From Vermamoeba vermiformis (taxonomy: Eukaryota): DNA of 64,000 nt. A program made the translations under genes and the position numbers. Shown piece after piece: positions 3,159 to 64,000 of this stretch (positions are counted from its first letter, which is position 1; every line of letters begins with the position of its first letter). The notes under the pieces were generated by a model. It did no database searches. It worked only from the letters and a program-made list of their open reading frames with translations, and had not been told where the DNA came from. The stretch spans positions 124,001 to 188,000 of the forward strand of contig JBEWZL010000243.1 in assembly GCA_045837725.1 (NCBI GenBank), read 5' to 3'.

Positions 3159-3920
3159 ATCTGTTTAATTTGACTTCTTTGTTACTCGAGCTAAAACAAT
3201 CTTAACCACATTAAGTACTGCATTTTGATCATGTTTTATTCAATCTTTTGTTCCTAGAAAAGAGATTAGGGCAGATCCGAACTGTGGCTGGAAATTTGTT
3301 GTCACATCCGGTAAAACGAGCCACGTGATGAACGTATATTTTTTTGAGCAAGCTAAATCTTTATCTTTCGGAAGTCTACGAGGTATGTAGGCAGTTTCTA
3401 CTACTTGGCGATTGTCATGACACCGGATCGGGTGTGAGGTGTGGCATCAACTTCCGATTCAACTGCTCAATCTGTAACACAATAGGTTGACGCATATAAC
3501 AACCAATTCATCTGCACTGTATCCGTTATATGTATGCCATTTGAGCGACAATCCGTTCGAGTGTCCGATCCCTGCCTGGGCTCAAAATTGTGGGGCGACT
3601 TGTAAATGGCATTATTAAAAAACAATAGACAAGCAACTTGCTCATTCTCCGTACAATTTATGATAACAAAGTAAATTTGAATTTATCTTAATAGTTCCAG
3701 ATTCTAGGAGTTAAAAAATTATTCAGATCGCAGCCAACAAAGTTAAGCAACACAAAGAAATCAGAACCGAGATTTGGTTTGTTATTATATTTCCACCATT
3801 TTAATAGTCAAGCACGGCGATATATTAGCAATAATCGATTTGATGGAACCTGCACCAGGAAAAGAATCGGAAAGTACGACTATATCTCATTATTATTTAA
3901 TTAATTCAAAAAATTAATTT

Positions 3921-4967
3921 TTGGACAGAAACGCTTCCAATAGCAACAAACAAGGAAGAAATTCAGTATTTGGCTGTAAAAAAGAGGTTGATCTGGGAGT
4001 AAAAACAATTACATTTTCAAATGCTGTGGCAGCCAGGCCGACAATGAATGCACATCTAGTAGAAGCTATTAAGCGCAGTAAAATATTGACAGGCTTAATA
4101 GTCCATTTCAAAACAATGAACAACCATTTCGAATATTGGGATCAGATCGTGGATGCAGTCTTAGAGAACAGATCTATTCAAGCATTAACATTCAATAACG
4201 TTGTATTTTCAATGCATTGGAAGCCAATCAAAAGCCTCTGCAAAATATTAGAAGGAATGCAAGATCTGCATGACACTTTGACACGTGTCAACCCGAACAG
4301 GCCCGTCCGTCTTGCCTTACGGAAAATATCCATCAACGGAGGTAGATTCGCAACAAAATTCTTAGAGGAGTTAGTACAGACATTACGGCATAACAAAGTA
4401 ATCACACAATTGGAAATAAATTACTTGAAGGAACATCGGCCAATATTTGGTGAACAGGCACAAGTGACAGTAGTACTTAGAGAGCTCCGAAATAACGATA
4501 CATTGACTAAAATAGAAATGACTCGCGGAGTTTTGAAGGAAGAATCAGGATTGGTCGAATTTATAAAGGAAAACAGATCCGTCAAAAAATTGATTTTTTG
4601 CGCTTGTTCGTTTAGCGATAGTTATTGGAAATTAATAGAACAAGCAGCAGAAGAAAATAGAGTAATATCCGAATTGATCTTTACACCTGATATTGAAGCT
4701 ATCAGTGCTGCGGATGTCGATCTGCCTCAGACGACCATTCCAAAATCTCTCGAGAAAGTATTAAAACAGAATAAAGATGCAAGAGATAGTGCTAAGAATA
4801 ATATGAAGATATTAGTACGAATGATAGCAATCAGGCCTCGAGCATACCTTGACATTTTTCCTCCGGAGATCTGGCTGGAGATTTTGAAGTACATTCAGCT
4901 CCCTGGCGTCAAAAAATCATTCAATTACAAACTGATCAATGAATTCAATAATGTTATTACGAAGTGA
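3921..4967 (+). CDS. RNI-like leucine-rich-repeat protein with C-terminal F-box-like motif
   Basis: Repeated LxxNxxIxxLxL units (ENRSIQALTF, HNKVITQLEI, NNDTLTKIEM, ENRSVKKLIF, ENRVISELIF) and C-terminal LDIFPPEIWLEILKYI. The true start is uncertain. Confidence 0.7.
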   Translation: MDRNASNSNKQGRNSVFGCKKEVDLGVKTITFSNAVAARPTMNAHLVEAIKRSKILTGLIVHFKTMNNHFEYWDQIVDAVLENRSIQALTFNNVVFSMHWKPIKSLCKILEGMQDLHDTLTRVNPNRPVRLALRKISINGGRFATKFLEELVQTLRHNKVITQLEINYLKEHRPIFGEQAQVTVVLRELRNNDTLTKIEMTRGVLKEESGLVEFIKENRSVKKLIFCACSFSDSYWKLIEQAAEENRVISELIFTPDIEAISAADVDLPQTTIPKSLEKVLKQNKDARDSAKNNMKILVRMIAIRPRAYLDIFPPEIWLEILKYIQLPGVKKSFNYKLINEFNNVITK

Positions 4968-5841: not shown

Positions 5842-8246
5842 TTAGAACTGACCATCGAATCCGATGAATCCGGTCAACAAAAATATATGGAAATATGATT
5901 TCTTTTCTACTAACGAGCACCAGTTCCAAGCAGACGTTAAGCGACCGTCAATGCACGAGCCTGCATCGAAAAAGTTGTCGGCGCCAGATCCGTCGAAGGC
6001 GTGTCTGAAAAAGTCTGCTAAAATAGTCTTGCGCAGCTTATCAACGCCCCCATATTGTTCTACAACAGGCACGATCTTAGGATTATCCATCAAGCTCGGA
6101 ATTTTGTCCAAGCAAGACACGATCGGATTCAAGATGCGCGGGACTTGGTTGTACTTGTCAATGAACATCAATGCATTAGGCACGTTGTGATCGCCCAAGT
6201 GAATAACACTGCTGCCGACCCAGTGCTCGACTTTCTCTTGCACTTGACGCAAGATCCTGTGCATGACCTTGCCGACACGAGGAGCGTCTTGAACACGATT
6301 CAAGCCCTAGTAATGTCATAATTAATACTGTAACATACTATGGAAAAGATACGTAATTGAAATAGCAAGAAGAAATTAGGCTATAATTAGCAAGATTTTT
6401 TTGAGCATTGCGGATCGAGCAGATCCAAGCACGGTAGTGAGTTCGATTAAAATGTTACGATGTCGCGATAATGTTAAACTTACTTGACCCGTGTCCATCA
6501 ATCTATAGTAATTGCTCTCGCCTAACAAATCTTCTTCAGCGAGGTACCACAATTTGAACATTTCGTGACTGATCTCGCGCCACAACATGAGTGATTGCAA
6601 CACGTAGTGATATTGACGCGCGTGATTGTGACTCAAACGTGCACCACCGCGACCAGCTTGGATCGCCAAAGAAAACTTCTCGTCCTCGTCGTCTTCGGCT
6701 GAAAAGTAGTGCTTGAGATAGACGATCACTTTGTCGACGGCGTCACGTGATGTACGGAGGTACGCGTGATTGTCAGTGATTGAGTAGAGGCACTGTTTGA
6801 TCTCTTCGTCGGTGATTTGGGGCGATTGGTACTTCTTGCACAACGCGTCAATGGCCTTCTCTTTCAACTTGGACTATAGTAACAATTATTAGTATGCATA
6901 GGCCTGAGCTACTCGAAAGTGACCACTACACGTGGCTAAAAAATCAAAATTTCCGTTCAAATGAACATTATTTTTCAAATAAATATCTGCAAAATAGTGA
7001 TAATAGTAGTGTTGCTACATACCTCTTTGCTGACTTCATGACGGCTCTTTCCTTCAGACAAGATCTCGCGAGTAGCAAGAGCCATGAGCGGATCAGTCAA
7101 CAAATCTTCAGCATCGCGATCAGCGAGGTACGAGTGCACTGTAGTCATAGGCTTGACGACTTTAAAGTTCAACAACTCTTGCACGTGTGGCAGCATCGAG
7201 TCTTGAAGCATGTAGATCAACTTGCCGTACTCGCTGCGCATTTTTTCAGGGTTCATAACCTTGTAACGACGTCCAATTTCTATATAATAATATTAGTATT
7301 AATTTATCTAAGCCAGAAGAAAATTTTTGAATTCATCATTCGAAAAAAGGCCGGTACAAAATGCTGAAATTTAAGGATTTTAATAACATTAGTATATTTA
7401 ATTGATGTATATTGATGCGTACCAAATACTTTTTGGAAGAAAGCTTCGTTATCAACAAAGTTTTTGTCCTTGATCATGACCTGTCCTTGGTTGTAATCAG
7501 CGGCAATCACCAAACCGCTCAAAATAGCGCAAATTTCTCTCAATTGAGCAGCCATACGTTTAGCCTATAATAATATAAATAAGATCGATCTCTTTAATGA
7601 ATTATAGTTCGGATCTTACCTTGCTTCCCCACGTAATAATGTCTACTTTGTCGGTGTATTCAGAGACGTGCATAGCTGCTTGCAACAGTCTCAACCACTT
7701 GCGTTCTTCGTAAGTCAAGCGCAGAGGAATATATTGAGCGCGATTAGCGAACCAATCCGGATCCTTCTCCAAAATGGATTCCAACGAGTTTGCAGAGTTA
7801 TTGGACGGTGCGAACTCGCCTTCACCATCGCTATCATCCTCCATATCAGGTTGACCGTTATTGTTGGCGCCCTTTGCTCCTGGAGCTTGTGCAGGTTTCT
7901 GATCGCGTAGCAAATCCGGTCTTACAATGTTCTTAGTGTGGCCCTTTCTATTACCCTTTTTATGCAAGGCTTGGAAGCAGACGTCGCAGTAGTTGTCCTG
8001 GCATTGTACGCACGTTACAGCCCACGGCTGGTCCTCGCATTCAATGCACATCTGGTCCTTCATAAATTGTTCATTTTTCTTTTCTTTTTGTTTTTGAGCT
8101 TCAACATTCTCAACGAATTCTTCTTTCATATCTTCTTGGTTGTCCAATACTGCATCTAAAATGCTCTTTGCGTGCTCGCGTTGAGCACGAGTTCGCGGGC
8201 TAAGTTCGCCATCGCGATCGTCAATTGACATCCGGTCCTGTTCCAT
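5842..8246 (-). CDS. UPF0652/DUF2009 family protein with N-terminal B-box zinc finger
   Basis: CIECEDQ..CVQCQDNYCDVCF..LHKKGNRKGH B-box; YIPLRLT..ERK.LRLL.AAM.VSEYTDKVD; MNPEKMRSEYGKLIYMLQD; RHAFDGSGADNFFDAGSCIDGRLTSAWNWCS. Confidence 0.88.
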
Positions 8247-8792
8247 TGTAAAGTGGCTCTAAATAGTATAAAAATAATTAATATTTGGGTGATAGGGGTT
8301 TTAATAATAATTGAAAAGAGAAGTTATATTTGCAAAGAGGAAATTTGACCGTTAAGAATTCAAAAAATAGAAAAAATACAAGTAGTCCACAAAATATTAT
8401 GGGCACTATATCGGTAAGTATTAAAAATAATATTAAATAATTTTTGATTTCGGTTAGTCTTTTAAAAATTAGGAAAAAATCACGATCTAAATTTACAAGT
8501 CAAGACATTTACCTATGCAAAATGGTAACGTACTTTTGTACTTTATATGGCCTATTGTGAAGAAGATTTGTGGTAGTTACACCAAACAAATCACTGTTTG
8601 TAACTTGAGAAATTTAAAAAATATTACGTGGATCCCTGGTTGACTGACGAAAAATTTCAACCTACAAATTACCCCCTATCTTACCGTATAGATTAGTGAG
8701 ATTTGTGTGGGTTAATTCTGTGCGGAATTCTTGCTGATCCGAGATCTCAACAATAAATTAAGTATTTATTACAAGGGTGCACTACAGCTCGA

Positions 8793-11462
8793 TTAGTGCG
8801 TATATACTTGGTACTGAGGGTTTGGCGACTTATTCAGAATAAATTGCGGCGGAAGAACAGTTGGTATGCTCGTGTAAAGGCTCTTCAGTTTGCCGTTAAT
8901 CAAAAACATTGCCAACACGAATTCTTCAATATCCAAGGCACCATCTTGGTCTTGATCCGCAAGTTCCCTATACAATAGTTAGATATAAATGACTTGCTGT
9001 TAAGAGTTCACCGTACCATATCTGCGCCAGATCGTCTTGTGGCAAACCAGATCGGTTAAAGAAAGCGTAAGCAGCAGGGCCCTCAATAATGCCAGTATTA
9101 TTAACATCTTCGCGCTTGAAAATTAATGAATATTTCGTTCGTTCTTCAGCCGGAATTTGAGGAATATCACTGAGTGACTTTCCAGATCCGCTGCTAGATG
9201 GGACAGGAGTTGTGGCCATTGGTGCAGGTCGACTTGGAGCAGCTTGAGGTGCAGCAGCAGCTTTAGGAGGTTGTTTGGGTGGGGCACCAGGATTGCCGTA
9301 TGTAGTAGAATTGTTTGGCAATGTCTGCGTGTAATTAACTGATGCGCGAGGGGGTAAAGACGGGGCTGCACTGCCGTTAGCTTGAGGCATCATAACTGAC
9401 GCTCGTTGAGGCAATGAAGGAGGTGGCGTGCTAACATCACCATTTGACTGGCTCATCATAACTGACGCTCGTTGAGGCAAGCGGGGTGGTGCAACATCGG
9501 AGTCGGAATTGGACGGCATCATCACTGACGCGCGTTGTGGCGGTCGAGGTGGCGGGCTTTCAGTGACTTCTGAGTTATTGATAGCAACTGAAGCACGTTG
9601 TGGCAATCGTGGTGGACCGCCGTCTGCTCCCAAACCTGGCAGCCTGAACCCTTCTTTGACTGGCGAGCTGGTCGGATTGGTGTTCACAGCCATCGACGCT
9701 CTGCTTGGCAGTTGTGGTGGACCACGTGGTGACGTGTTACTAGCATCGTAATTGCTCGGTTGAACACTGTTTGGTGCAATTGTCATGCGATTAGCACGGG
9801 ACGGAACAGGTGGACTTTCATCGTGACTGCTAGTACTAGCTCCGACAGTGTACGAGCGGTCACGACTAGTCGACGAAGTGTCCACTGTGCGCATGGGAAA
9901 TGGTGGTGCGTCATTGCTGGGCATTGCAACTGACGCCCGTGCTGCGCGTGATGGCAGTTGTGGTGCTGAAGATTCGTACGAAGGCGATGGTCGTGAAGGA
10001 ATTGATGGTGCTTCAGAAGAGGCACTAATAGCGAACACCAACACTTAGCTATAGTGCTATGGTGAATTAAAGTCAACTTACGCTCTGTTTCTGTGTGCCG
10101 GTGGAGGCATTTGTGGCTCTTCTTGAATACGCGGGGACGAGACACGCGGTGACGAATCACGAGGACTATCACTATAGACTACATTAGGACTTAAGACAAT
10201 AACAGCAGCATTAAATAGATTATAACGTACCCGACGACATTGAGTGACAAAGAAAAGGCGTCACCACCAGTAGGCACAGAATTCTTAAATGCTTTCAAGA
10301 AGCGCTGGTACATCACTTCTTGCGAGTCCAAAAACTATTTGTGAATTAATATCGTGTAAATATTATGACAATTTGAATTGTGATCCTTGCGACACGTACA
10401 CTTCTGAAGAACTTTTCAAAGTCCAACATCTTCCTATCGCAAAAATCTTTGAGATCTCGCGTGACAGTCTCGCTCTCTCTTTCGTATGCTGATTTGGCTA
10501 AATTATATCGCTCAGAATACTAGCAAAATAATTCCGATTAGATCAGATCTCGCGAGTTAGAATTCAACCGTCTTTAGCTCTTGGACTAATAAATAAATAG
10601 TAGTTATAACGTACTTGTTGAATCTTAGGGTCATCTTGTTTAGCTGATGTGTAAGTCTTCATGCTCGATTTGTATTCAGACAATAATTTGTCGCGTTGCG
10701 ATATGCGTTGCTATATTGCCATTAAATTAGAGTCATAATTAAATAAATATATTTCTAGTAAAATCAACTTACTTGCATAGTTGCAAGCGCTTCTAAATAT
10801 TTTTCTATTTGTCCATCCAGTCTAGCTTGTTCGCCCTATTGTCCACAGTTAATTAAAATTAATTAGATATCATTAAAAATATTATTACCGAATAATCTTC
10901 AATCGCTTTCTTAATCGGAATGCTAGCACCTGCAATTGCGGATCCACCCAAAGAACTTTCGCCATGACAAAATTGTCCGACGCTGTATGAGAGCTCTTCG
11001 AGGGGTTTGATAATGCCTAATATTGATAATTATAAATATGAGCCGTTCGCAGGTAATTGTAAAAGAAATCTTTGTCGTGGAAATTTGACAAAAATTCGAT
11101 CGAAATTACAAAAGTGTAATAATTTATATAATTGCAACGGTTTGTACAATAGCAATTACGTATGCATTATTTAACGAATATTATACTAAAAAAATACCTG
11201 AAAGTGCTTTGACGTATCTTCTTGTTGCATCCAATATTTCGTTTACGTCCTTTTTGATATTTTTGAATTTAGTCCTTAATTGTTCAAATTGAGCTTCTTC
11301 TCCTTCGGGAGTACGATCTTTTTTGTCTTTATCATCCTTTGGCTTGAAGATCTAAAAAATTATGGATCAGATTAGTCTTCCATGGCCCGCTTCTTCATTA
11401 TATATTGCTTGAATGTGCTCAAATTACCATGTTAAGCTTACCTTTTTGATTTTCGAAGCCAT
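8793..11462 (-). CDS. Endocytic adaptor: N-terminal BAR-like helical domain, proline-rich repeats, C-terminal EH domain
   Basis: Start MASKIKK; helical exons such as EAQFEQLRTKFKNIKKDVNEILDATRRYVKAL; long Pro/Ser-rich exon; EH domain KYSLIFKRED..GII.G..A..FF.RSGLPQDDLAQIW/ELADQDQDGALDIEEFVLAMFLI..IPTVLP. The BAR call is weaker than the EH call. Confidence 0.8.
9340..9970 (-). repeat. Imperfect coding tandem repeat encoding PxxPxRAS[V/M] motifs
   Basis: About 7 copies, e.g. PPRLPQRASV, PPRPPQRASVMMP, PPSLPQRASVMMPQ. Near-identical DNA 'catcataactgacgctcgttgaggcaa' at about 9388 and 9454. Confidence 0.85.
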
Positions 11463-13255: not shown

Positions 13256-14411
13256 ATGGTCAAGGGACGAAGAAGAGCTAAGAATCAGGATCGCTTCAAC
13301 ACGTACATCTACAAAGTCCTGAAGCAGGTTCATCCTGATACTGGCATATCCAATCAAGCCATGGTAGTCATGGACAACTACGTCCAGTTCACTTTGCGTC
13401 GTATTGCCGAACAAGCACAGATCTTGGTTGATCTCGAGAAAGCAAGGACGTACGTGCTTAGTTAAATATTTTGTGGTCGCTAATAGCTTTTTAGTCTCGA
13501 TAGCCGTGACATTCAAACTGCTGTTCGTTTGGAATTGCCAGGCGAGCTTGCAAAGCATGGTAAGCCCCATAATAGTTAGTTTAAATAATAATTATTAATG
13601 GGCGTTCAGCGGTCTCTGAGGGCACCAAGGCAGTCGTTAAATTCACCTCGTCTCGTGGTACTAAAGGCTCGCAGTCCTTCAAGGCTGGTTTACAGTTCCC
13701 CGTGTCACGTGTCAAAAAGCTGCTCAAGTTCTGTAAGCACCATACTTAAACTCACGCCTCGTTCATTTTACTAATTACTCTGTTTGGTAGACACTAATGC
13801 ACCGCGCATTGGCAATACTGCTGCCGTCTACTTGGCTGCAGTGTGCGAGTACATGGCTGCTGAAGTCTTGGAGCTTGCAGGCAACGCCTCAAGGGGTACG
13901 TCACTATTTCAAATTCTGTTGCTAAATTTCACTAATGCGCACGTAGATCTGAAGCTGAGAAGAATTATCCCTCGTCACATCCAATTGGCAGTCCGTGGAG
14001 ACGAAGAACTCGATCGCTACTTGAAGGACGTTACTATCCGCGGAGGAGGAGTCATCCCGCACATTAACAAGGCCCTTATTACTGGTAAATTCTCGAACAG
14101 CACTCCTGCAACGACAACGAGCTTCGGTGCCTTTGGGGGTGGATTCGGCAGTACTGCTCCGACCCTTTGGAGGTTTCGGTACTATGACACCTGCACCCTC
14201 AACGGACTTTGGAAATGCTTTTGGAGCTCCAACGGCCTTTGGTACCACGGAATGCGGCTCCAGCATTCACTTTCGGGGGGCGCTACTGCCTTCAATCCCA
14301 ACGCAACCAATTTCACTTTTGGTGCTCCTTCTACTAACCCAATCCCTGGATTTGGTGCGCTGAAAATCAAGGATGAGGAAGATGGAGGATGACGAGGCCG
14401 ACGATGAGTAA
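13256..14411 (+). CDS. Fused histone H2B-H2A doublet with FG-rich and acidic C-terminal tail
   Basis: Exons 13256-13449, 13495-13559, 13610-13732, 13791-13895 and 13947 onward, all GT-AG and phase-consistent. H2B ([49 protein letters not shown]) runs without a stop into H2A ([57 protein letters not shown]). As assembled the frame ends at 14392; the frame-corrected tail ends at TAA 14409-14411. Confidence 0.92.
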
Positions 14412-36406: not shown

Positions 36407-39400
36407 CTAAATGTTATCGTTCTTGGGTTGGTAGAACGGCGAGTTGAATTGTTTCATTTTGTCACCCTGGTAGATCGGTGAAGTGTTGGATGTGTCAAAG
36501 GTATCGCCCAACTTCTCGAAGAAATCGTCGACTTTAGCGGCACGAGCCTTGCGGGTCAATGCAATGGCTGTGGCGACACCGGCAATGGCAGCACCGGCAG
36601 AGACCGTCAAAGCGATGGTGAGCGTGTTGTCAGGCGAAGTGCTCTCGCTAATCAAGCCCGTGTCACGCGAGTAGTTGATGGTGATGTCGTGGCTGGCATT
36701 CATCGGGCGCTTGAGCTTGTCAGTGTTGCCCAAATCGTCCACGTACACGCTGACAACTGTTGACATTTGACTGTCGGAGGGTTGGAACGTAATGGACTTG
36801 AAGTACAGCTCGTTCAAGAGACTCTGAGGGTCCGAGCAGTTGATTTTGATCGTGTTCTCATCGCTGAGGTCAACGCAAGCGGCGGGCTTGTTGCCGATAG
36901 GCTCGAAGGCACGAGGATAAGTGATGTTGAGGTTACCAGCAGTAGCGGGGATGGACACGGTGAAGTAGATCTCCTTGTTGCGCGCATCAGGGTCACCAAT
37001 GTTGAACTCTCTGAAAGTGAACGAAGGCAAGCTACCATTGCTGGGAGCAGTGATAGTGACACTGTCGTTGGCTTGGATGTAAGGAGGATCGTTGATGGGC
37101 ATGACACGAATGATGGCCTTGACGGGGCGAGCTTCACCACCTTGGTCATCGTGAGCAGTGAATGTCAACGAGGCGTAGTTTCTCTCGTCCCATTGGTCGG
37201 GAGTGGGGATGAAAACAACACGGTAAGAAGCAGGAGCGAGACTAGGAATGGCCATGGGAGTGACCAACTTCTCGCCGTAAGGTTGAGCACATACGCCATC
37301 CTCGGTGGCAGTGGGGCAGACATAGAGCTCAGCGCCAGGGGAGGCAGGGATGGGCACGCTGATGCTCGACACGATAGTCTCCAAAGGCGAGTCAATATCG
37401 GTGACAGTCCATTCGAGGATGAGGGTAGTGTCTTCGTCCATGTCAACACGACCAGGCAAAACGTTGAACTTGGGCACGATGACTGGAGGATCGTTCACAC
37501 CCAAGACGTTGATGTTCACAAAGTAGGGGATCGAGACGGCGTTTTGCTCGTCAGAAACAGTGAAGGTGAAGTTGGCGTAGCGGAGACCGAACTCATCGGG
37601 CAAGGCAATGAACGAGACGAGCAAGTCCTTGTTGACGAGGGTGTAAGGAGTGCTGGTGATCGTGACCTTGTTGCACTGCTTGTAGGAGGTAGTGCACTCC
37701 CAGAGCGTGCCAGTAGAGACTGAACGAGTGATGGTCAAAGTGAAAGGACCTTCGCTGTCAATGTCAACAACTTCAACACCGAAGTTCATCTCAATGGGCG
37801 TGTCTTCGTAAGTGGTGAAGTCCAAGATACCCTTGTAGGTAGGAGGATCGTTGACAGGAGTGACCCAAACGACACCGTCGTACTCAGAGCTGAGACCGCC
37901 AGAGGGATCGGAGACTTGGTATCGGAACACACCCAAAGGCTCAGTGGTGCTAGAAGCGTCAGGGTCAGGGAAGAACCACATGGAACGACCGTTGAAAGGA
38001 ATAACGCTGCCTGCGGTGATGGAGGTGTTTCTAGCGTACTCGAGGAAGAATGAGCCCTTGAGCACAGAGGTGATGGTGATGACCAAGCTTGAAGGCACGT
38101 TATCAACGTCACGAGGGTTGAAAGTGACTTCAATAGGAGTGTCTTCAGGAGTCTCCAAGAGAATGTCTTCAGCGGCAGGAGGATCGTTGACGGGGATGAC
38201 AATGATTTTGACAGTGTATTCAGCGAGTGATTGCGATGAGCTGTCGTTCACACGGAACTTGAAGGAAGTGAATACAGTAGTATCATCACCACTGTTGAGG
38301 CCAGCAGGAGGAGTGTAGAGAATCTCCCACGAGGTGTAGACAGGAGTGAGAACAGAGTTGACGTCCATAGTGAGGCCGCTCGCCATATTAATTAATTCAC
38401 CCTTGTCAACATTTTTCGTGATGGTCAGGGTGAAGGTGCTAGGGTCGCTGTCAACGTCATTAACAACGAATCCATTGATCTTAACGGAGGTGTCTTCGTA
38501 AGTGATGAAAGTCATGTCAACCGAGGTGGGTGGATCGTTGACAGGTGTCACAGTGATCGAGATTGTACCGAGATCATAGAACTGCGAGTCGCTAACTCGG
38601 TAGATGAAGGAGTCAGGACCGTTGTAGTTCAAGTTGGGTCTGTAGGTCACCGTCTTGGCGGGGAGGAAGCTGCCCTTGGACAATTTAGTAGCACCGTTCC
38701 AAAGAGTACCGAATGAGGGCAAAGTCTCAATGGTGACGTTGAGGCTCGAGATAGGGTCCTCGCCGTCCGACAACAATGGAGTCACATTGACGAGCAAATC
38801 AGTGTCTTCAGGAGTAGTCAATGCCTTGTCATCTCCGGTGGGCGGCAAGTTGATCAAAGTGCCATCAGCAACAATGTTGATCGTGACAGTGTAATTCGTC
38901 ACAGAGTCCAAACCGTCATTCACTTTGAAAAGGAAGGTAGTGAACGGGATACCGTTTTGGTTAATAGGCGGCAAGTAGGTAAAGTTGTGTGCTGTTGTGA
39001 GACCCACATTGCTAGGAACAGTCGTCAAGTTAGAGTTCAAGTTGGCGAGGAATCCCTTAACAGGCAAGGATTGCACGATCACGCTGATGGGATTGCCGTC
39101 CAGCGAAGTGCCGCCGAGTCTGAAGTAGATGGGCAAGTTCATTTTGGTAGTGAACTCAACGTTGGTGGAGGTAGGAGGATCAGGCACAGGTGTCACATTG
39201 ACTGTCACGGTCGAGGCTGCGACTGCTCTAGCGTTACTGGGATCCACTGCCATGTAAGTGAAGGTGACCTTTCCGTTGAAGTTGGCAGCAGGCACGAAAG
39301 TGACGGTCTGACCGGAGAGAGTAGCACCAGCAGTCACGGTCGTAGCGCCGTCCTTGAGAGTACCAGAGGTAGGCAAAGTTTGAATGTAAATTCTAAGAGT

Positions 39401-42252
39401 GCTAGGGCTATCATCGATGTCAAAGACGTGGGTGGAGAAGTCGAGCAGAATGCTGGTGTCTTCTTTCGTTGTGTTCTCAAAGTTCTCATTGGTGGGAGGA
39501 TCGTTGACTGGCAACACATTAAATGTGATGTAACCAATGTTTGAGTTGACACAGCCGTCGTTGGCTTGGTAAGTCATTGACAGCTGACCATTCCAGTTTG
39601 GAACCGTTGTTCTGATGGTGAACTGCAACGAGCTTTGATCGTAAGTGGTGCTGGTTGAAGTCACAGGCGAGTCTTGGAAAGTCAAAGCAGCGTTCGAGCC
39701 AGGCAAAGAGAGCAGCTGCACGGTCAAGGCGTTGTTCTCGGGATCAGAGACTCTGCCGTACAAGTCGAAGTCCAAAGATTCGTCTTCGTTGAACGAGTAA
39801 GTCAAGTTCAAGGCACGAGGAGGATTGTTCAAGTTGACTGCCACACCAAATGAACGGTAGCCCCAAGCAATCATGTTGACAGTGAAGATTTCAATCACAC
39901 CAAAGTCATTGACGGGGTAAGTACCAGGGTAAGTCAAAGGAGCCGTGCGTGTGGTCCATGTGCCAAGAGGTGGGTTGTAGACAACGGCAGGCATGTCTGA
40001 GCGCACCCAGTAGAGTTCGTTCCACGAAGGAGTGCTGGTGTAGAACGGATCGAATTGCACGCGCACAGTGTAGTTGCTCAACACATCGACAGCCAGCTGG
40101 GGCCAGTTGGAATACGTATCGGTCAAGGCACCGCTGTAGCCGATGGGCAAGTTGTTGATAAAGTTTTGGTAGATGTTGTACGTGGTAGTGTTGACGTTCG
40201 AGAAGAACACAGGGACGTTGTTCCAGCCAGCCATGTCAGCCATCAAACGAGCAGTGTAGTTGAACATCGGGCGGCTGGTCAACACGACGACAACACCGAA
40301 GCAAGCAGTTCGTCTCCAACCAATAGTGCTGTTGCCAGCAAAATATCTATAGGCCTCAACGACTCTGCTAGTGGGGCCCGGGACGAGGTTGTTAGGACCT
40401 GTGAAAGAGTTGGCAACAGAGTTGATGGAGGCCAGATTGTTCGTCAAGAACAGGTGCGGGTTGACACCAAGAGAAGTGCCGTTGGTCCAGAATGTACCAA
40501 AGCCTAGTCTAGCGTTCCACAAGTTGGAGATTTGGTTAAAGAAGACTGGCAATTGAGTTCTGAAATGAAGTTAGACACAAGACCTAAGCGGATCTACAGC
40601 GAGTTTGCTTACCTAATGTTATCCAAGGTGGCCGCAGACAAACCGTTCAAGTCAATAGCAACGAAGACGTCAACGTTGGGCTTGGTGGGGACCCAGACAT
40701 CAAAGTTCAAGGGCAATTTGGAGTTGACGACAGTGCTGACAAGTACCGAGTAAGTGTTGGGGTAGACGATGGAAGTGTTAGCCTTAGTAGCAGGAGTTTG
40801 ACCAATGATGACGTTGTTATTGGTCACGTTACACTTGCTAAGTGTTTGTTGACAGTCTAATACAACGAGTTAGGACCCGAAGTCAAAGACGGATGTGGAT
40901 GTGGATGCACTTACTACTAACGTTGGGGCCGGCCAAGAGGATACCACGATCACAAGGAACGTAGACGCATCGACTATTAGACGGAAGGTACTTGATTGGA
41001 ACGACGGTGCAGTCAGTGCCATTTTGGTACAGACCACGACCGTTGGATGTGGTCATGCAGATGTTTTGTCCAGTATATCGATCCCAGTTGAAGTTCTTAG
41101 TGTTGGTAATGACCAAGCGAGTGGATTCAGATTCGTCAGCGATTGACCATCCAGCAGGAATGCTAATGTATCCAAGGCAACCTGAGATCAAAGATTATTC
41201 CACTACTCTAAGAAAGAATATTGCTCGCGCCTTACCTTGGAAGTTAGAAGTACCCAGAAGACCGTAGCTGCGGCAGTTGTAGTTTCTAGTCTTGACGACT
41301 CTACCCGTCAAGCACGTATCCACAACTTCACCATTGTACACAGGAATATTCAGTGCCGTCCCATCCACCCTCAACAGTGGCATAGAAAAGGACTGGAGAA
41401 ATATAATGTCATTAGTTGAGCTTTAGAGAACAAGAGGGCGGAGATCTTACCGTCGTTATAATCTTGATCGCCCATACCAGTAAAATCTTCGAAACCGACG
41501 ATGATCTTGCCATCGATGGAGACAATGGACGTGTGTCTGAAACCATCCAAGTTTACCAAGTTGGTGCTGTTAATGGACCACCAGATGGTGTTGTTCAGAC
41601 GGTAGGTGGAGGCGTCTTGATAACCATCCTGACGCATGAAAAAGCCGATACGAGTGTTCGCAGGGAAGGGGCCAATTCTAGTGGTCAAACCAGCAGTCAT
41701 ACAACCCCTAGGAGTAACGTTGATGCCGCTTCTAGTTACATCCGGCCAGATTAAGGGAAGACCAGGAGGGGTCTAGAAATTATTAGCCAATGACTAAAAT
41801 AATGTAATTTAATACATACGTCTAAGTTTTGAGTACCCTCGTTAAAAATAAAATAACCCAGTTGGTTTCTGAAATTGGATGTTTGGGTAATGAACGTTAT
41901 GGAAATGTTCGCGTCCTGTGTAGCGCAAAGTTAGTCCGATGTCTCAACGCTAGGTGATGTATGACAGCTTACAGTGGTTAACTTGATGGAAGTTGGCGTT
42001 TGCAAAGACACCAAAGACGGATGAGGAGTGCTGCCCTCGCGGAATAAAATGGGAATAGAGTTCGAAATATTCGTTGGAATAGTGACGAAATATGAGCTCG
42101 CTAGAGTCACAGGTTGCGCTGGATGAATTAAAGTTAGTTTCACGTTAATAAATTACGAGGTAATTACAATTTGTGGGGCAAGTCCAAGTGACTTGTCCGT
42201 TAGTGCCTAAGACCAACAAGGCTACGACTAGGTAGTAAACGAACAGCTTCAT
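36407..42252 (-). CDS. Sib-like (similar to integrin beta) cell-surface adhesion receptor
   Basis: Signal peptide MKLFVYYLVVALLVLGTNG (ATG 42252); DUF4114-like IGFF..VGFEDF..GDQDYND; Cys-rich segment; vWA-like region (DVFVAIDL..LGFGTF..VVVVLT); nine ND/NNPP-initiated cadherin-like/VCBS repeats; one TM; short tail with SPIY and SPFY. Confidence 0.88.
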
Positions 42253-58394: not shown

Positions 58395-61186
58395 ATGGCG
58401 AATCCGCTAGCTTCAAATCCCGAGCAGTCTCTGTAAGTGCCAAGAAGACAATAATTCTTCGAAAATTAATATTTAATTATGGATAAATTAATTGTAAGCT
58501 GGCTTCTTATCCTTGCTGGTTTGGACTAATCCGATCTTCTTAGGGTAGAGCAGGTGTACTTTAGCGCCGATAAAGCTGATATAGCAAAGCAACCATTATT
58601 AGCACAACGTAATTATGAAAAGTTGGCGAATGTTGTCCAGTACGTTCGTGGTTGATTTTTCTAAATATTTTAATTAATTCTTATAAATTAGAACGCAACA
58701 ATTAGCAGCAGAAGAAAACAAGAATAATGAATTAATATACGATTTAGCGGATCTACAGACAAATTGCTTTCAACCAAAACTCTCAGCTTTATTCGAATTT
58801 AATTACAAGAATATTTATCAACAATTACCACAGGTAACTAATAGTTAACCTAATAATCCGTCAATAATCTCAACTATTTTATTAGGATGTGTTACAAGCG
58901 GTGGCAAAGAGACTAACGGAGCCTAAATACCTGACCCCAATTAATTCCGACTTATTATTCAAGAATTTTCCGCTGCCAAAAGTCGTTGCCGCCCCGTCCA
59001 AGAAACCCTCGTTCAAACATTTCAAACCTATTGCACCACCGAACACCAATTCAAATAATACAACACAGAACAATAACAGCCATAATCATAATACTATGAA
59101 CAAGTCTAATGGTGCTAACACTTATGTCTCGCCGTTCAATCACGACTCCATGGAGATTGACAGCGACAACGGCAGTCACGTGATGAGCAATCAAAGTCAC
59201 GTGTCTGTCACCAATAACAACAGTCACGTGACCAGAAATCAACAGCCAGTCGCGTCTACCAGCAAAGATCAGCTGTTGCCATCACGAGCCAACAATACCA
59301 GCACTAATGCAGTCAATAAGACGAGTCCGCCGTTGCCTCAAAAACAACCGCCAGCAACAGGTGCTGGTAACAACACAGGCGCGAATAAATCGAATGGCAC
59401 AGCCAAGTCCACGCCCAATATGAACGCGATCACGAACTCGTTGTTGAACAAACGACCGCGCAATACATTCTACGGCAAGGCATCGGGCGAGAATGACGAC
59501 GAAGAGGAAGAACAGTCACCGCCGCAACAACAGGACAAGCCAAGGGACTTCAAGACTGGATTTGAACGATTGGTACGTCCTTATTTAATATTATTATATA
59601 AGAGCTAGTACTTTATAATGTCCCGTGGAATTGGTGCAGCTTATTAACGGATTTAATACCTTTTCTATGGTCAAAATTACAATGCTAACTAGCATGTTGA
59701 CAGCAAGAAGAAAATGCCAAAAATGGACAAGCGACAACATCAACCTCGGGTGCGAATTCAAGGACGCAACTGTTAGGCAAGCGAAAGAGAAATTTCCAAA
59801 CACCGTTCAAGAAATCGCCCGAAGAGGAAGAAGAAGAGGCACGTGCTGCGAAGAAAGCCAAAGAGACGACAGAACAGCCGCTGTACAAGAACATTGATCC
59901 CGAGATGATTGAGCGCATTGAAAATGAAATTTTAGAGGCTGGCGTGCAAGTCAAGTTCGATGACATTGGTACGGTTCTATTAATAGGCACATCGATGTTA
60001 TTATTTTGCTGCTAATAATGTTTGTTTTGTTCAGCTGGTCTGGAGAACGTCAAGAAAACACTCGACGAGATGATTATTCAGCCTGCTAAACGACCGGACT
60101 TGTTTCAAGGCGTAAGTGTCAACGTGTCAAAGTGTCACACGCGCTCTTTCCTAATTTGGTAATGTCAGTTACGAGCTCCGCCACGTGGTCTGTTGTTGTT
60201 TGGACCGCCTGGCAACGGCAAGACCATGATTGCCAAGGCCATTGCGACTGAAGCAGGCTTGACCTTCTTTTCCATCTCCGCCTCGTCTTTGACGTCCAAG
60301 TGGGTAAGTGACAGCAGAAATAGATTTTGCCTAATATAGTACCCGAACTAAATTCTTGCAAAGATTGGTGAAGGTGAAAAAATGGTTCGAGCGTTGTTTG
60401 CGGTCGCCAAAGTCCATCAGCCATCGTTCATTTTCATCGACGAAATTGACGCGTTGTTGGCCATGAGAAGCAACGAAGAACACGAGTCCTCGCGCCGTCT
60501 GAAAAACGAGTTCTTGACGCAGTTTGATGGCGCAACTACCTCGGCCAAAGAACGTGTCACGGTGATGGGTGCCACGAACAGACCGCAAGACCTCGATGAA
60601 GCTGCTAGACGTCGGTTGGTACGGCGTGAATTCGATCAGAACTGTTTGCCTGGCCGTTATTAACATTGCCTAATTAGGTCAGAAGAATTTACGTGCCATT
60701 GCCCGGCAAAGAAGCGCGCATGCATTTGATGCAACACTTGCTGTCGAATGAATCACACGTGCTCACTCGCGGTGATTTGGAGAAGTTGGGTGACATGACC
60801 GAGGGTAAGTTCATAGGGCTTATTACCATATTAGGCGAATTTTTGAAACTGGTTCCGGGATCTTTCACGTCACTTTTGATCGCGTTTTTGAGCTTAGTAA
60901 TTGATTATAAGGACTGAAATCTTATGAAAAGTATTTAGTCTCGAGTACTAACATGTCCAAATAAGGTTATTCCGGTCACGATATTACGAATTTGTGCAAA
61001 GATGCGGCAATGGGTCCGCTTCGAGAACATCAATCGTACATTGCCACAGTCGATGAAGCACTGATTAGACCAGTGAATATGGATGACTTTAGAGCCTCAT
61101 TGACGAGGATCAAGCCGAGTGTGGCCCCTGAAGAGACACAGCAGTTTGAAGATTGGAACACCAAGTTTGGTGTCTCGGCATTTTGA
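58395..61186 (+). CDS. Fidgetin-like/spastin-family AAA+ ATPase
   Basis: [85 protein letters not shown], and a Vps4-like C-terminus WNTKFG. Confidence 0.93.
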
Positions 61187-61378: not shown

Positions 61379-62498
61379 CTATTTACCGCCTTTATTTTTA
61401 GCGCGTTGTTTTGCCTGAGCTTTCTTCGCGGCGACGAGTTCCACTTGTGAGCGCAGATAGAAATGAGCTGTGGTGCCGTTACACTTAATGTATTGGGGCT
61501 TTAATCCATTCTCAATGAGGTCTTGATCGGTGAGTCTGAATCGGTCCTTGAGATCTGTTTTTTTAATCAGTTTGTACTTGTCCAAGGTACGACACGTCAA
61601 ACACATCCGCGCTGAAACTGGATAGAAAAAGTAGCTGGAACTCGTCAAAGCGCCGCACTCTATGCAAGTTTCCTATAAACAATATTAATAAAGTGCTCTC
61701 TGGCAATTTATCCGCTGCGCTTACTTTTAACAGGTGCTTGAAATGTTGTTTCCAACTCGTGTCATCGTCTTTAGGCAGATCTGGGCACCAGTCTTGGCAA
61801 TACTCTAAAAAAAGATGATTATTATATATTGACTATATCATTCTTTGCTTACTTCGCCACAGAGCTTCGTCTTCGCCGAGCAACAACCACATCTTGCAGA
61901 CTTGAGCAGTTTTTGCGGCGTCTTTGGGAGGCAAATGCGTAAAAATCGTTGTAACGATTTCAACAGGCAGTGACTTAATATTATCAGCGGTAGTTATATT
62001 GAAGAGGGTCGGATCTGAAGAGATCGCGGATTTCAGCTACGAAAAACGGTGTCAGATTGACATTCGTGGCCACAATGATGTATAAATACCCTTTTAGATT
62101 TGCGCACATCTATATTATCTTCTGCAGGCCTCTTCTTTGTTGGTATGTGGGATTCTAAACCGGATTGAGATCGATCGAGTTAAATTGAATTAAATATCTG
62201 CTTACTGTTGACAGAATCCACGTAATTTTGTAAAATTATTTTATCCTCATCTGGTAGGTCTGCGTGGCCAATAAAAGCAGTAATCGAAAGTGGCGGCTCT
62301 GCCTAAAAAATTGTTAGATCGGGTCAAATAAACACCGTGTCAAGGTACCTTGTAGCAATTTAAATGGATAAATTTTGTCGCGGTGTAGCCCATGTATCCA
62401 CGTTCTGACAATGGTACTCTGAGTGCGCCTTTCGCAATCGTGGAATCGCAGTAGATGCACTTGGCTCGCGAAGTCGGAGATATTTCTATGATTGGCAT
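61379..62498 (-). CDS. PARP-type zinc finger - NLS - F-box - XPA-like DNA-binding domain fusion
   Basis: Six phase-consistent exons: IEISPTSRAKCIYC..I.KG.LR..HLNC; KKRP..RKSKRLK; SLPVEIVTTIFTHL..AQVCKMW..DEALWR; CIECG..SY..CLTCR..KYKLIKKTDLKDRFRLTDQDL..FYLRSQVE. Confidence 0.87.
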
Positions 62499-62641: not shown

Positions 62642-64000
62642 TTACTTTCTTACGTGAAACTGCTTCAACCATCCTTCAAGCAATTCAAAATTTACAACAC
62701 TTCCTCCGCACACGACAACGACAAGTCCCTTGCTCAAATCCAGATCCTTCAGCTTGCTGCAACAAAAGGGTCAGTACTAACACTAGCATATCCTTGCACA
62801 TATAGTACCCTTCATAAACAGCCGCGAGACCAGCACTGCACGAAGGTTCAACGAGTATTCTGTGGTCCTCTAAGAACTGATAGCCGGCCTTGACTGCCTC
62901 AGTGTCCGACACGAGTCGTGAGTGCACTGTGTGTTTCTTGGTCCACCTGCCACACGTGTCAATATATCACTGGCGCCACTGGCTAGCTAATCACTTACTC
63001 CCACGCTCCTTCGCACAATCTACTCGCACCGAGTGTCTTGGCAATCGATGTGATGGCGGGAATGGTCACGAGTTCACCTCTGTCACGTGTGATGTTAAAG
63101 ACATGTTACCGTTGTTGCTATAGCACTTACTTTTGTACGGCAGGATGTAACTTGGCAGCACCTTCAGTCTCAATAGCAATCAGCGGCACTGACTGCCATC
63201 CGACGTTGTGTAAGCCTTCAATTATTCCGCACATCAGACCGCCACCACCGACCTGTTGACGCGTGTCAGAAAAAAATCAGGATCGCGCTGCCAACAGTAC
63301 TTACGGTGCATAAAATAGCGCTCGGAGGTGTTGTTAATTCTTGTGAAATTTCTTTTACAATCGATGCATGGCCGGTCCAGATCTGTCGTTTACCCGTGTT
63401 AATCCATAATATTTGTGACTAATGTACGTACTTCAGGGTCATCAAATGGGTGAATCAACGCAGCACCCTCCTGGCTAGCGAGCTTCATAGCGAAGTCATT
63501 GGCCTCGGACCACACTGCGCCGTGCACCACCACTGGCAACATGTCAGCACATGGCAACAACTTTCAGGGCATGGCAGTACTTACCTTTAGCGCCTTCTTC
63601 TCCAATCTTGTCGCGCATCATGTGAGGCGTAGATTCGGGCACTAGTTAAATGTTAATTAAGTATCAATTGAATATCTTCAACGTGTCCATCCGCTTACCA
63701 ACAACTGTCACGGGCACACCCAACTTGCGACCAGCTTTATATGAATTAAATTTATGTCACGGTATTAATATGTCATACCATAAGCTACTGCCATGCCAGC
63801 ATTGCCTTAATTGAAGATCAGAGATGATATTCAATAGATCTCGTTAGATCGGCTACTTACCACCAGAAGACGAGACCAATAACTTAACACCTCGTTCGTG
63901 AACGGCTTTCCAACATTTAATGCCAAGTCCGCGAATTTTAAAGCTGCCTGTAACGGAGTAATTGAATTAGATCCGGATCGTTGCATACTTGAGCTATTTA
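62642..64000 (-). CDS. L-serine/threonine dehydratase (PLP fold II; 5' end outside window)
   Basis: GSFKIRG, SSGGNAG.A.AY, IHPFDDP.IW.GH, VGGGGL, LVEPSC.A.LA, VVVVCGG. Confidence 0.93.

Follow-up and report, generated by a model that had tools for sequence, protein, structure and literature searches.

Results

A six-exon gene on the minus strand

The window analysed here is the whole stretch of 64,000 nucleotides (nt) of Vermamoeba vermiformis DNA that lies between positions 124,001 and 188,000 of contig JBEWZL010000243.1 (GenBank assembly GCA_045837725.1, forward strand), and all coordinates given below count from its first letter. An original prediction, made by a model from the letters of this DNA and a list of its open reading frames (ORFs), had placed at 61379-62498 one spliced ORF of roughly 290 amino acids (aa), in which a PARP-type zinc finger, an F-box and an XPA-like domain follow one another. 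When both strands were read, the gene was found where it had been placed, on the minus strand, with six exons and five GT...AG introns that join into a single spliced frame. The coding sequence comprises 870 nt, corresponding to 289 codons and a stop, and has no internal stop codon; its ATG lies at 62498 and its stop codon ends at 61379. In the order of translation, exons and introns are arranged as follows:

62349-62498, minus strand: exon 1, residues 1-50; start codon and N-terminal half of the PARP-type zinc finger
62303-62348, minus strand: intron 1, 46 nt, GT...AG; read-through meets a stop after 2 codons
62206-62302, minus strand: exon 2, residues 51-82 and one further base; acidic, the presumed second half of the PARP-type finger, assigned by position only
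62155-62205, minus strand: intron 2, 51 nt, GT...AG; read-through meets a stop after 8 codons
62090-62154, minus strand: exon 3, up to residue 104; basic linker with the first part of a bipartite stretch resembling a nuclear localisation signal (NLS)
62037-62089, minus strand: intron 3, 53 nt, GT...AG; read-through meets a stop after 18 codons
61853-62036, minus strand: exon 4, residues 105-165; remainder of the NLS-like stretch, then the F-box (about residues 125-165)
61805-61852, minus strand: intron 4, 48 nt, GT...AG; read-through meets a stop after 6 codons
61725-61804, minus strand: exon 5, residues 166-192; last part of the F-box, followed by a short linker, in frame, no Pfam match when searched alone
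61673-61724, minus strand: intron 5, 52 nt, GT...AG; retention shifts the frame
61379-61672, minus strand: exon 6, residues 193-289 and the stop; C4 finger with an alpha/beta core of XPA/Rad14 type (193-276), followed by a basic tail of 13 residues

Owing to this frame shift, the XPA-like domain is not read when intron 5 is retained. The introns are short, and exon and intron differ in their guanine-cytosine (GC) content (0.40-0.46 versus 0.21-0.40), that of the whole window being 41%. The predicted protein of 289 aa is basic, with an isoelectric point (pI) of 9.2. Its methionines are found at residues 1, 36, 153 and 215 only; for both the F-box and the C4 finger to be intact, translation must start in exon 1. 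On these grounds we rejected the possibility that exons 1-3 and exons 4-6 belong to separate transcripts, a case that the original prediction had itself named as its refutation and against which the methionine positions argue.

Domain searches were run exon by exon and not on the spliced protein, which was scored with an XPA-only hidden Markov model (HMM) described below. The three domains expected in the single spliced frame were borne out by the gene model together with the matches in Pfam and PDB and to the XPA HMM, all of which lie above chance. We are thus confident that the locus represents one real six-exon gene with a PARP-type finger, F-box and XPA-like architecture.

The F-box and the preceding linker

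By its sequence, the F-box in exon 4 is unambiguous. It scored 44.4 bits (expectation value, E, 1.4e-11) against the Pfam family F-box-like (PF12937; cut-off 24.3) and 32 bits against the Pfam family F-box (PF00646; cut-off 20.5), and among the PDB matches to this exon, which also included FBXW8, SKP2 and FBXL5, the F-box of FBXW7 was the best (E 3.7e-7). Furthermore, its alignment with those of FBXW7 and SKP2 runs over the full length, and its sequence bears no sign of degeneracy. The matched FBXW7 and SKP2 entries presumably show F-boxes bound to Skp1. That the F-box would be a canonical one, as had been predicted, thus agrees with scores over both Pfam cut-offs and with the two F-boxes matched in the PDB.

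The segment linking the finger to the F-box has a pI of 10.0. The NLS-like segment that had been noticed in it (KKRP..RKSKRLK) was recovered at residues 89-107 of the spliced model, where it spans the junction of exons 3 and 4 and matches the bipartite type by pattern only. The protein as a whole is probably nuclear.

Searching the window with tblastn yielded no second copy of the gene, all remaining matches having E values of 0.30 or worse. A weak match of this kind to the F-box part of the 289-aa model (E 0.30) lies at 3227-3412, near a 349-aa ORF (3918-4964, plus strand) that has no Pfam match and carries a C-terminal F-box-like pattern, Pro-Pro-Glu-Ile-Trp-Leu-Glu-Ile-Leu.

The PARP-type finger

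The profile of the Pfam family zf-PARP (PF00645), which has 87 positions, matched exon 1 (50 aa) through positions 1-49 with 28.4 bits (E 2.8e-6). The CxxC..HxxC finger claimed for this part of the protein is present with all four of its zinc ligands, C14-x2-C17...H45-x2-C48, which align with C21, C24, H53 and C56 of PARP1. In addition, in a language-model search of the ESM Atlas with exon 1, the zf-PARP set accounted for 22 of the 30 closest clusters, the highest score being 0.93. Residue R11 of the model aligns with R18 of the first PARP1 finger (Zn1), which is described as the "phosphate backbone grip" and as key for DNA binding (PMC8150716).

The finger resembles Zn1 and Zn2 of PARP1 and the finger of DNA ligase III in its CxxC...HxxC ligands and in an arginine that aligns with R18 of PARP1. 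Unlike in PARP1 and ligase III, there is a single finger here, with one residue fewer between the two ligand pairs, and no PARP or ligase catalytic domain is attached to it.

An XPA/Rad14 homologue in the last exon

When exon 6 (97 aa) was compared with the PDB by phmmer, the only entries below E 1 were human XPA (E 3.8e-4) and the Rad14 of yeast (E 3e-3), the latter matched over query residues 3-85. With the same query, a library of 1.84 billion representative proteins was scanned in full by phmmer and yielded 13 matches at E 0.001 or better: a close fragment (P0001), a tandem-repeat protein (P0002) and 11 distant proteins, 10 of which reach the cut-off of the Pfam family XPA_C. P0002 (2299 aa), despite its E value of 9e-41 and 32% identity, was treated as unrelated, its score being the sum of 18 weak tandem-repeat matches, and was excluded throughout. 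P0001 is a fragment of 92 aa from another source; it is the one close relative found, with 77% identity over the XPA-like exon and all aligned cysteines kept.

Profile-based comparisons likewise pointed to XPA. Aligned by hhalign, exon 6 with P0001 matched nine XPA homologues with 99.2% probability (E 1e-19, 84 columns, 39% identity). Under an HMM made from these nine sequences only, the spliced model scored 61.1 bits (residues 191-280), as compared with 8.5 bits for the best of 1000 shuffled sequences. The latter, XPA-only profile (A3) omits two atypical proteins, P0005 and P0009, both of which are included in the 13-sequence alignment (A1) used for structure prediction. From that alignment AlphaFold2 modelled exon 6 with a predicted local distance difference test score (pLDDT) of 84.3, and the top 14 chains found with this model by Foldseek in the PDB were all XPA or Rad14, including structures in complex with DNA (E 2.8e-4 to 1.6e-2; template modelling score normalised to the query, 0.49-0.66). 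Since the 13-sequence alignment consists mostly of XPA, a control fold was run with exon 6 and P0001 only. It reached a pLDDT of 66.2, with the zinc-finger part (exon residues 1-28) below 50, and the secondary structure of the helix/hairpin/helix core was unchanged; its top 12 Foldseek matches were again XPA or Rad14 (E 0.01-0.14, none at 0.001 or better).

The C4 finger, C195-x2-C198...C216-x2-C219 (C3, C6, C24 and C27 of exon 6), corresponds to cysteines 105, 108, 126 and 129 of human XPA. Three of these positions are invariant in the 13-sequence alignment and the remaining one is nearly so, P0001 beginning only after it. As in XPA and Rad14 (PDB 1xpa, 6lae, 5a39 and 6ro4), the zinc finger is followed by a core of helix, beta-hairpin and helix. 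We consider it firm that the module of exon 6 is a true homologue of the XPA/Rad14 zinc finger and core. Unlike in XPA and Rad14, it is the core only that is present here, preceded in the same protein by a PARP-type finger and an F-box.

The two atypical proteins set aside above carry this fold in surroundings other than XPA. In P0005 (334 aa) the XPA_C match (34.1 bits) follows an extended N-terminal region in which the MCM4 winged helix is weakly matched, and P0009 (167 aa) carries an XPA-type C4 finger and core whose XPA_C score, 22.8 bits, is under the cut-off. With both in non-XPA contexts, proteins with an XPA core may be more varied in architecture than the XPA scaffold alone would suggest.

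Discussion

A candidate ubiquitin ligase receptor with repair-type modules

The predicted protein reads, from its N-terminus, as a PARP-type finger, a linker with a bipartite NLS-like stretch, an F-box, a shortened XPA/Rad14-homologous module and a basic tail; by this order of domains it would be an F-box protein whose targeting modules, unusually, are of repair type. Nuclear import, binding of Skp1, binding of DNA by either module and the target of the ligase are all predicted from the identities of the domains, and with this qualification a lesion-targeted ubiquitin ligase appears plausible. In our model, the F-box would bind Skp1 and thereby make the protein a substrate-receptor subunit of an SCF (Skp1-Cul1-Rbx1) ubiquitin ligase, and the N-terminal PARP-type finger would dock this complex on interruptions in the DNA. 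The XPA-like module, which occupies the usual recognition position of F-box proteins, would either grip adjacent distorted or junction DNA or select a protein for ubiquitylation, so that proteins on damaged DNA or on repair intermediates would be ubiquitylated locally. We put this mechanism forward tentatively, giving it somewhat less than an even chance. A narrower version is more doubtful still, namely a lineage-restricted SCF receptor in which strand breaks are detected by the finger and kinks or junctions in DNA by the reduced XPA fold, and whatever occupies the lesion is ubiquitylated.

Several observations weigh against a lesion-guided receptor of this kind, most of them concerning the two modules that are supposed to meet DNA. 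At the finger, the zf-PARP profile that had been suggested as a check does match exon 1, and the cut-off of 39.3 bits is not reached by this exon; a score under the whole-domain cut-off is expected, because exon 1 holds only half of the domain. The presumed other half, exon 2, gave nothing relevant in Pfam or PDB and no zf-PARP signal when searched alone, its matches being at chance level (ATP-synt_VA_C at E 0.2 in Pfam, designed ankyrin proteins in the PDB). Furthermore, the position of F44, given as the base-stacking residue of PARP1 in PMC8150716, falls on a one-residue gap of the alignment, flanked by Tyr-Met and Gly-Tyr, which is another difference from PARP1 and ligase III.

The departures of the last exon from XPA are more numerous. 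Against XPA_C (PF05181), exon 6 scored 17.4 bits (E 0.0043, positions 1-38 of 51) and missed the cut-off of 25, and XPA_N (PF01286) gave no match at E 10 or better. Thus, of the two XPA profiles of Pfam proposed as a check, one fell short and the other was silent. The NPH motif, whose Asn-Pro is invariant in the nine XPA homologues, is absent from exon 6, and the segment leading from the first to the second helix is 5 residues shorter than in XPA, as the alignment and hhalign agree, each placing the gap differently. In the predicted hairpin, formed by strands 60-64 and 67-73 of exon 6, the tip is a tight Asn-Gly turn with no aromatic residue, and the whole module is devoid of tryptophan, the protein having this residue at 154, 164, 171 and 183 only; in human XPA, it is Trp175, at the hairpin tip, that stacks on DNA at the junction (10.1101/628032). 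The protein ends 13 basic residues past the XPA core, without the extended C-terminal helix of XPA, and for human XPA residues 98-239 are stated to be required for full DNA binding (PMC7038936). There is also no Gly-Phe motif anywhere in the protein, so that the N-terminal Gly-Gly-Phe region of the nine-XPA consensus is missing, and the C-terminal, TFIIH-binding part of XPA with its second conserved cysteine pair, named in PMC10810185, is missing as well. Taken together, the XPA_C score under its cut-off, the silent XPA_N profile and the missing NPH motif, hairpin-tip aromatic, helix and N-terminal motifs led us to reject a canonical XPA orthologue. The close resemblance to the XPA DNA-binding domain that had been noticed at the outset therefore stands as homology, firmly so by hhalign, HMM and fold, and does not extend to a full-sized core or to the NPH motif, the tip aromatic and the extended helix.

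These losses lend some weight to a different role for the module, which could recognise a protein and not DNA, leaving the PARP-type finger alone to bring the SCF complex to DNA. The substrate could then be RPA70 or another excision-repair factor, or the module could be an XPA mimic that competes with true XPA. In F-box proteins the domain that recognises the substrate usually follows the F-box on its C-terminal side, as this module does, and the features that the module has lost (NPH motif, Trp at the hairpin tip, extended helix) are ones linked to the binding of junction DNA. Moreover, the zinc motif of human XPA binds RPA70: the contact with RPA70AB has been mapped to it and is broken in the six-residue M6 mutant (PMC7038936). 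However, the M6 residues E106, K110, E111, F112 and D114 face I, A, L, T and S in our alignment, with none of the five identical, the sixth, D101, preceding exon 6. This mismatch is weak evidence, since the interface could have co-evolved; the module lacks the best-known contact residues not only for DNA junctions but for RPA70 too. The strongly basic character of the module (pI 9.0) and of its tail (pI 11.3) also suits nucleic-acid binding. We consider the protein-recognition role unlikely.

Even less probable, in our view, is that no ligase is formed at all, the F-box controlling the turnover of the protein itself or merely tethering Skp1 outside an SCF complex, and the protein being a small DNA-repair scaffold or DNA-end-binding factor. 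Its size of 289 aa and the repair-type nature of two of its three folded modules would fit, and non-SCF roles of F-box proteins are established; the F-box, by contrast, is well over both Pfam cut-offs and matches FBXW7 and SKP2 over its entire length, with no sign of degeneracy. Should the protein instead be the working XPA of the organism, an excision-repair scaffold that has acquired an F-box and a PARP-type finger, it would be understandable that its nearest relatives in the library of 1.84 billion proteins are true XPA and Rad14, that it retains the core motifs along with all four cysteines of the zinc finger, and that a recognisable XPA is absent from many eukaryotes (PMC10810185). Without the Gly-Gly-Phe and NPH motifs, the hairpin Trp, the extended helix and the C-terminal part with the second cysteine pair, and with XPA_C under its cut-off and XPA_N silent, we regard this as very improbable.

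There is, finally, a slim chance that the gene model is wrong or the locus does not work, be it through chance joining of exons, as a relic of recent exon shuffling or as a silent pseudogene. The splicing of the six exons is predicted from the DNA sequence alone, no full-length relative was found either in the phmmer scan of 1.84 billion proteins with exon 6 or in word-indexed searches, and conservation in another source was seen for the last exon only, in a fragment (P0001) that itself has no Pfam match at E 0.01 or better; these points likewise count against our model. As to the word-indexed searches, exon 6 gave 53 candidates among longer proteins, none at E 0.01 or better, and exon 1 gave 4 among longer proteins, none of them matching, and no candidate of similar length, such blanks being weak evidence. 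Against a chance or dead gene speak the five canonical introns of uniform size that restore one stop-free frame, the three intact domains with every zinc ligand in place, the want of any internal start that would yield the downstream domains, the higher GC content of exons than of introns, and the 77% identity of the last exon to a protein from another source.

Relation to proteins described before

No description of the combination of PARP-type finger, F-box and XPA-like domain was found by text searches of the literature, and to this extent the impression that the architecture had not been described holds. It does not hold for the pairing of F-box and XPA-type domain. A phylogeny of XPA mentions in passing, in describing BLAST hits to human XPA, an uncharacterised "F-box clade" with some hmmscan hits to XPA_N and XPA_C (PMC10810185, Nucleic Acids Research 2023); the F-box plus XPA-like pairing has thus already been present in databases, where it was noticed and left uncharacterised. 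That clade is described there as poorly aligned and without the conserved cysteines; it groups with the cation-efflux clade of ZNT9 and served as outgroup. In the same article, zf-PARP has 0 occurrences. Going by the clade's description, which is the sole basis of this comparison, the likeness lies in outline, in an F-box and XPA-type matches; unlike that clade, the protein reported here keeps all four cysteines and has true XPAs as its nearest relatives. In the Foldseek list for exon 6, the ZNT9 domain (2enk) comes only at rank 28, with E 0.14.

Receptors of cullin-based ligases that themselves contact DNA or lesions include FBH1, which joins an F-box to a UvrD helicase, KDM2A and KDM2B, which join a CxxC finger to an F-box, and the cullin-RING ligase 4 (CRL4) with DDB2 or CSA. 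The shared concept is a cullin-RING receptor equipped with a DNA- or lesion-binding module of its own. DDB2 and CSA, which have WD40 folds, are receptors of CUL4 and not F-box proteins, and to our knowledge neither a PARP-type finger nor an XPA fold is part of FBH1, KDM2A/KDM2B, DDB2 or CSA.

With few exceptions, the XPA fold has a single role, that of the nucleotide excision repair scaffold; here a trimmed copy of it stands in the recognition position of an F-box protein that is also equipped with a PARP-type, break-sensing finger. If SCF is indeed brought to lesions in this way, the protein would represent an SCF counterpart of the CUL4-DDB2 lesion ligase, that is, a second and independent coupling of lesion recognition to ubiquitylation besides CUL4-DDB2/CSA, and the first XPA fold to serve as a targeting module of a ubiquitin ligase. 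It would also offer a minimal XPA core with which the parts of XPA required for binding DNA or partners could be sought, and it would assign a function to the uncharacterised F-box/XPA-like proteins that have been set aside as outgroup in XPA phylogenies. If our model is not true, the protein would merely be an unusual, narrowly distributed F-box protein.

Neighbouring genes and other features of the window

The six-exon gene fits between its two neighbours. Upstream on the same strand, a gene for a pyridoxal phosphate (PLP)-dependent enzyme ends near 62642, and two short upstream ORFs of 6 codons each lie between it and the ATG at 62498; on the other side, a convergent gene for an AAA/Vps4-type ATPase ends at 61186.

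Another gene of the ubiquitin system, not adjacent to the F-box gene, was found at 7605-8258 (minus strand), as an ORF with an ANCHR-like B-box zinc-binding domain (E 2e-9) and the start of DUF2009, a "non-canonical E2 ubiquitin-conjugating enzyme" (E 1.8e-13). At 8971-10044 (minus strand) lies a Pro/Ser-rich ORF with many units resembling Pro-Arg-Leu-Pro-Gln-Arg-Ala-Ser-Val, whose terminal EH domain scores 21.8 bits against a Pfam cut-off of 22. A histone H2A-type ORF at 13775-14389 (plus strand; Histone_H2A_C E 1.7e-9) runs in frame into a long extension rich in Gly, Phe and Thr, and may represent either an H2A variant with an unusual tail or read-through of an intron. Lastly, a 1387-aa ORF at 36410-40570 (minus strand) comprises at least five bacterial-type cadherin-like/Big_9 repeats, a SibA-like Ig domain, an apparent membrane anchor and a short tail; we take it to resemble the Sib adhesion proteins of Dictyostelium, a hint at an amoebozoan-like source but no proof of it, the SibA-like domain presumably being named after an adhesion protein of that organism.

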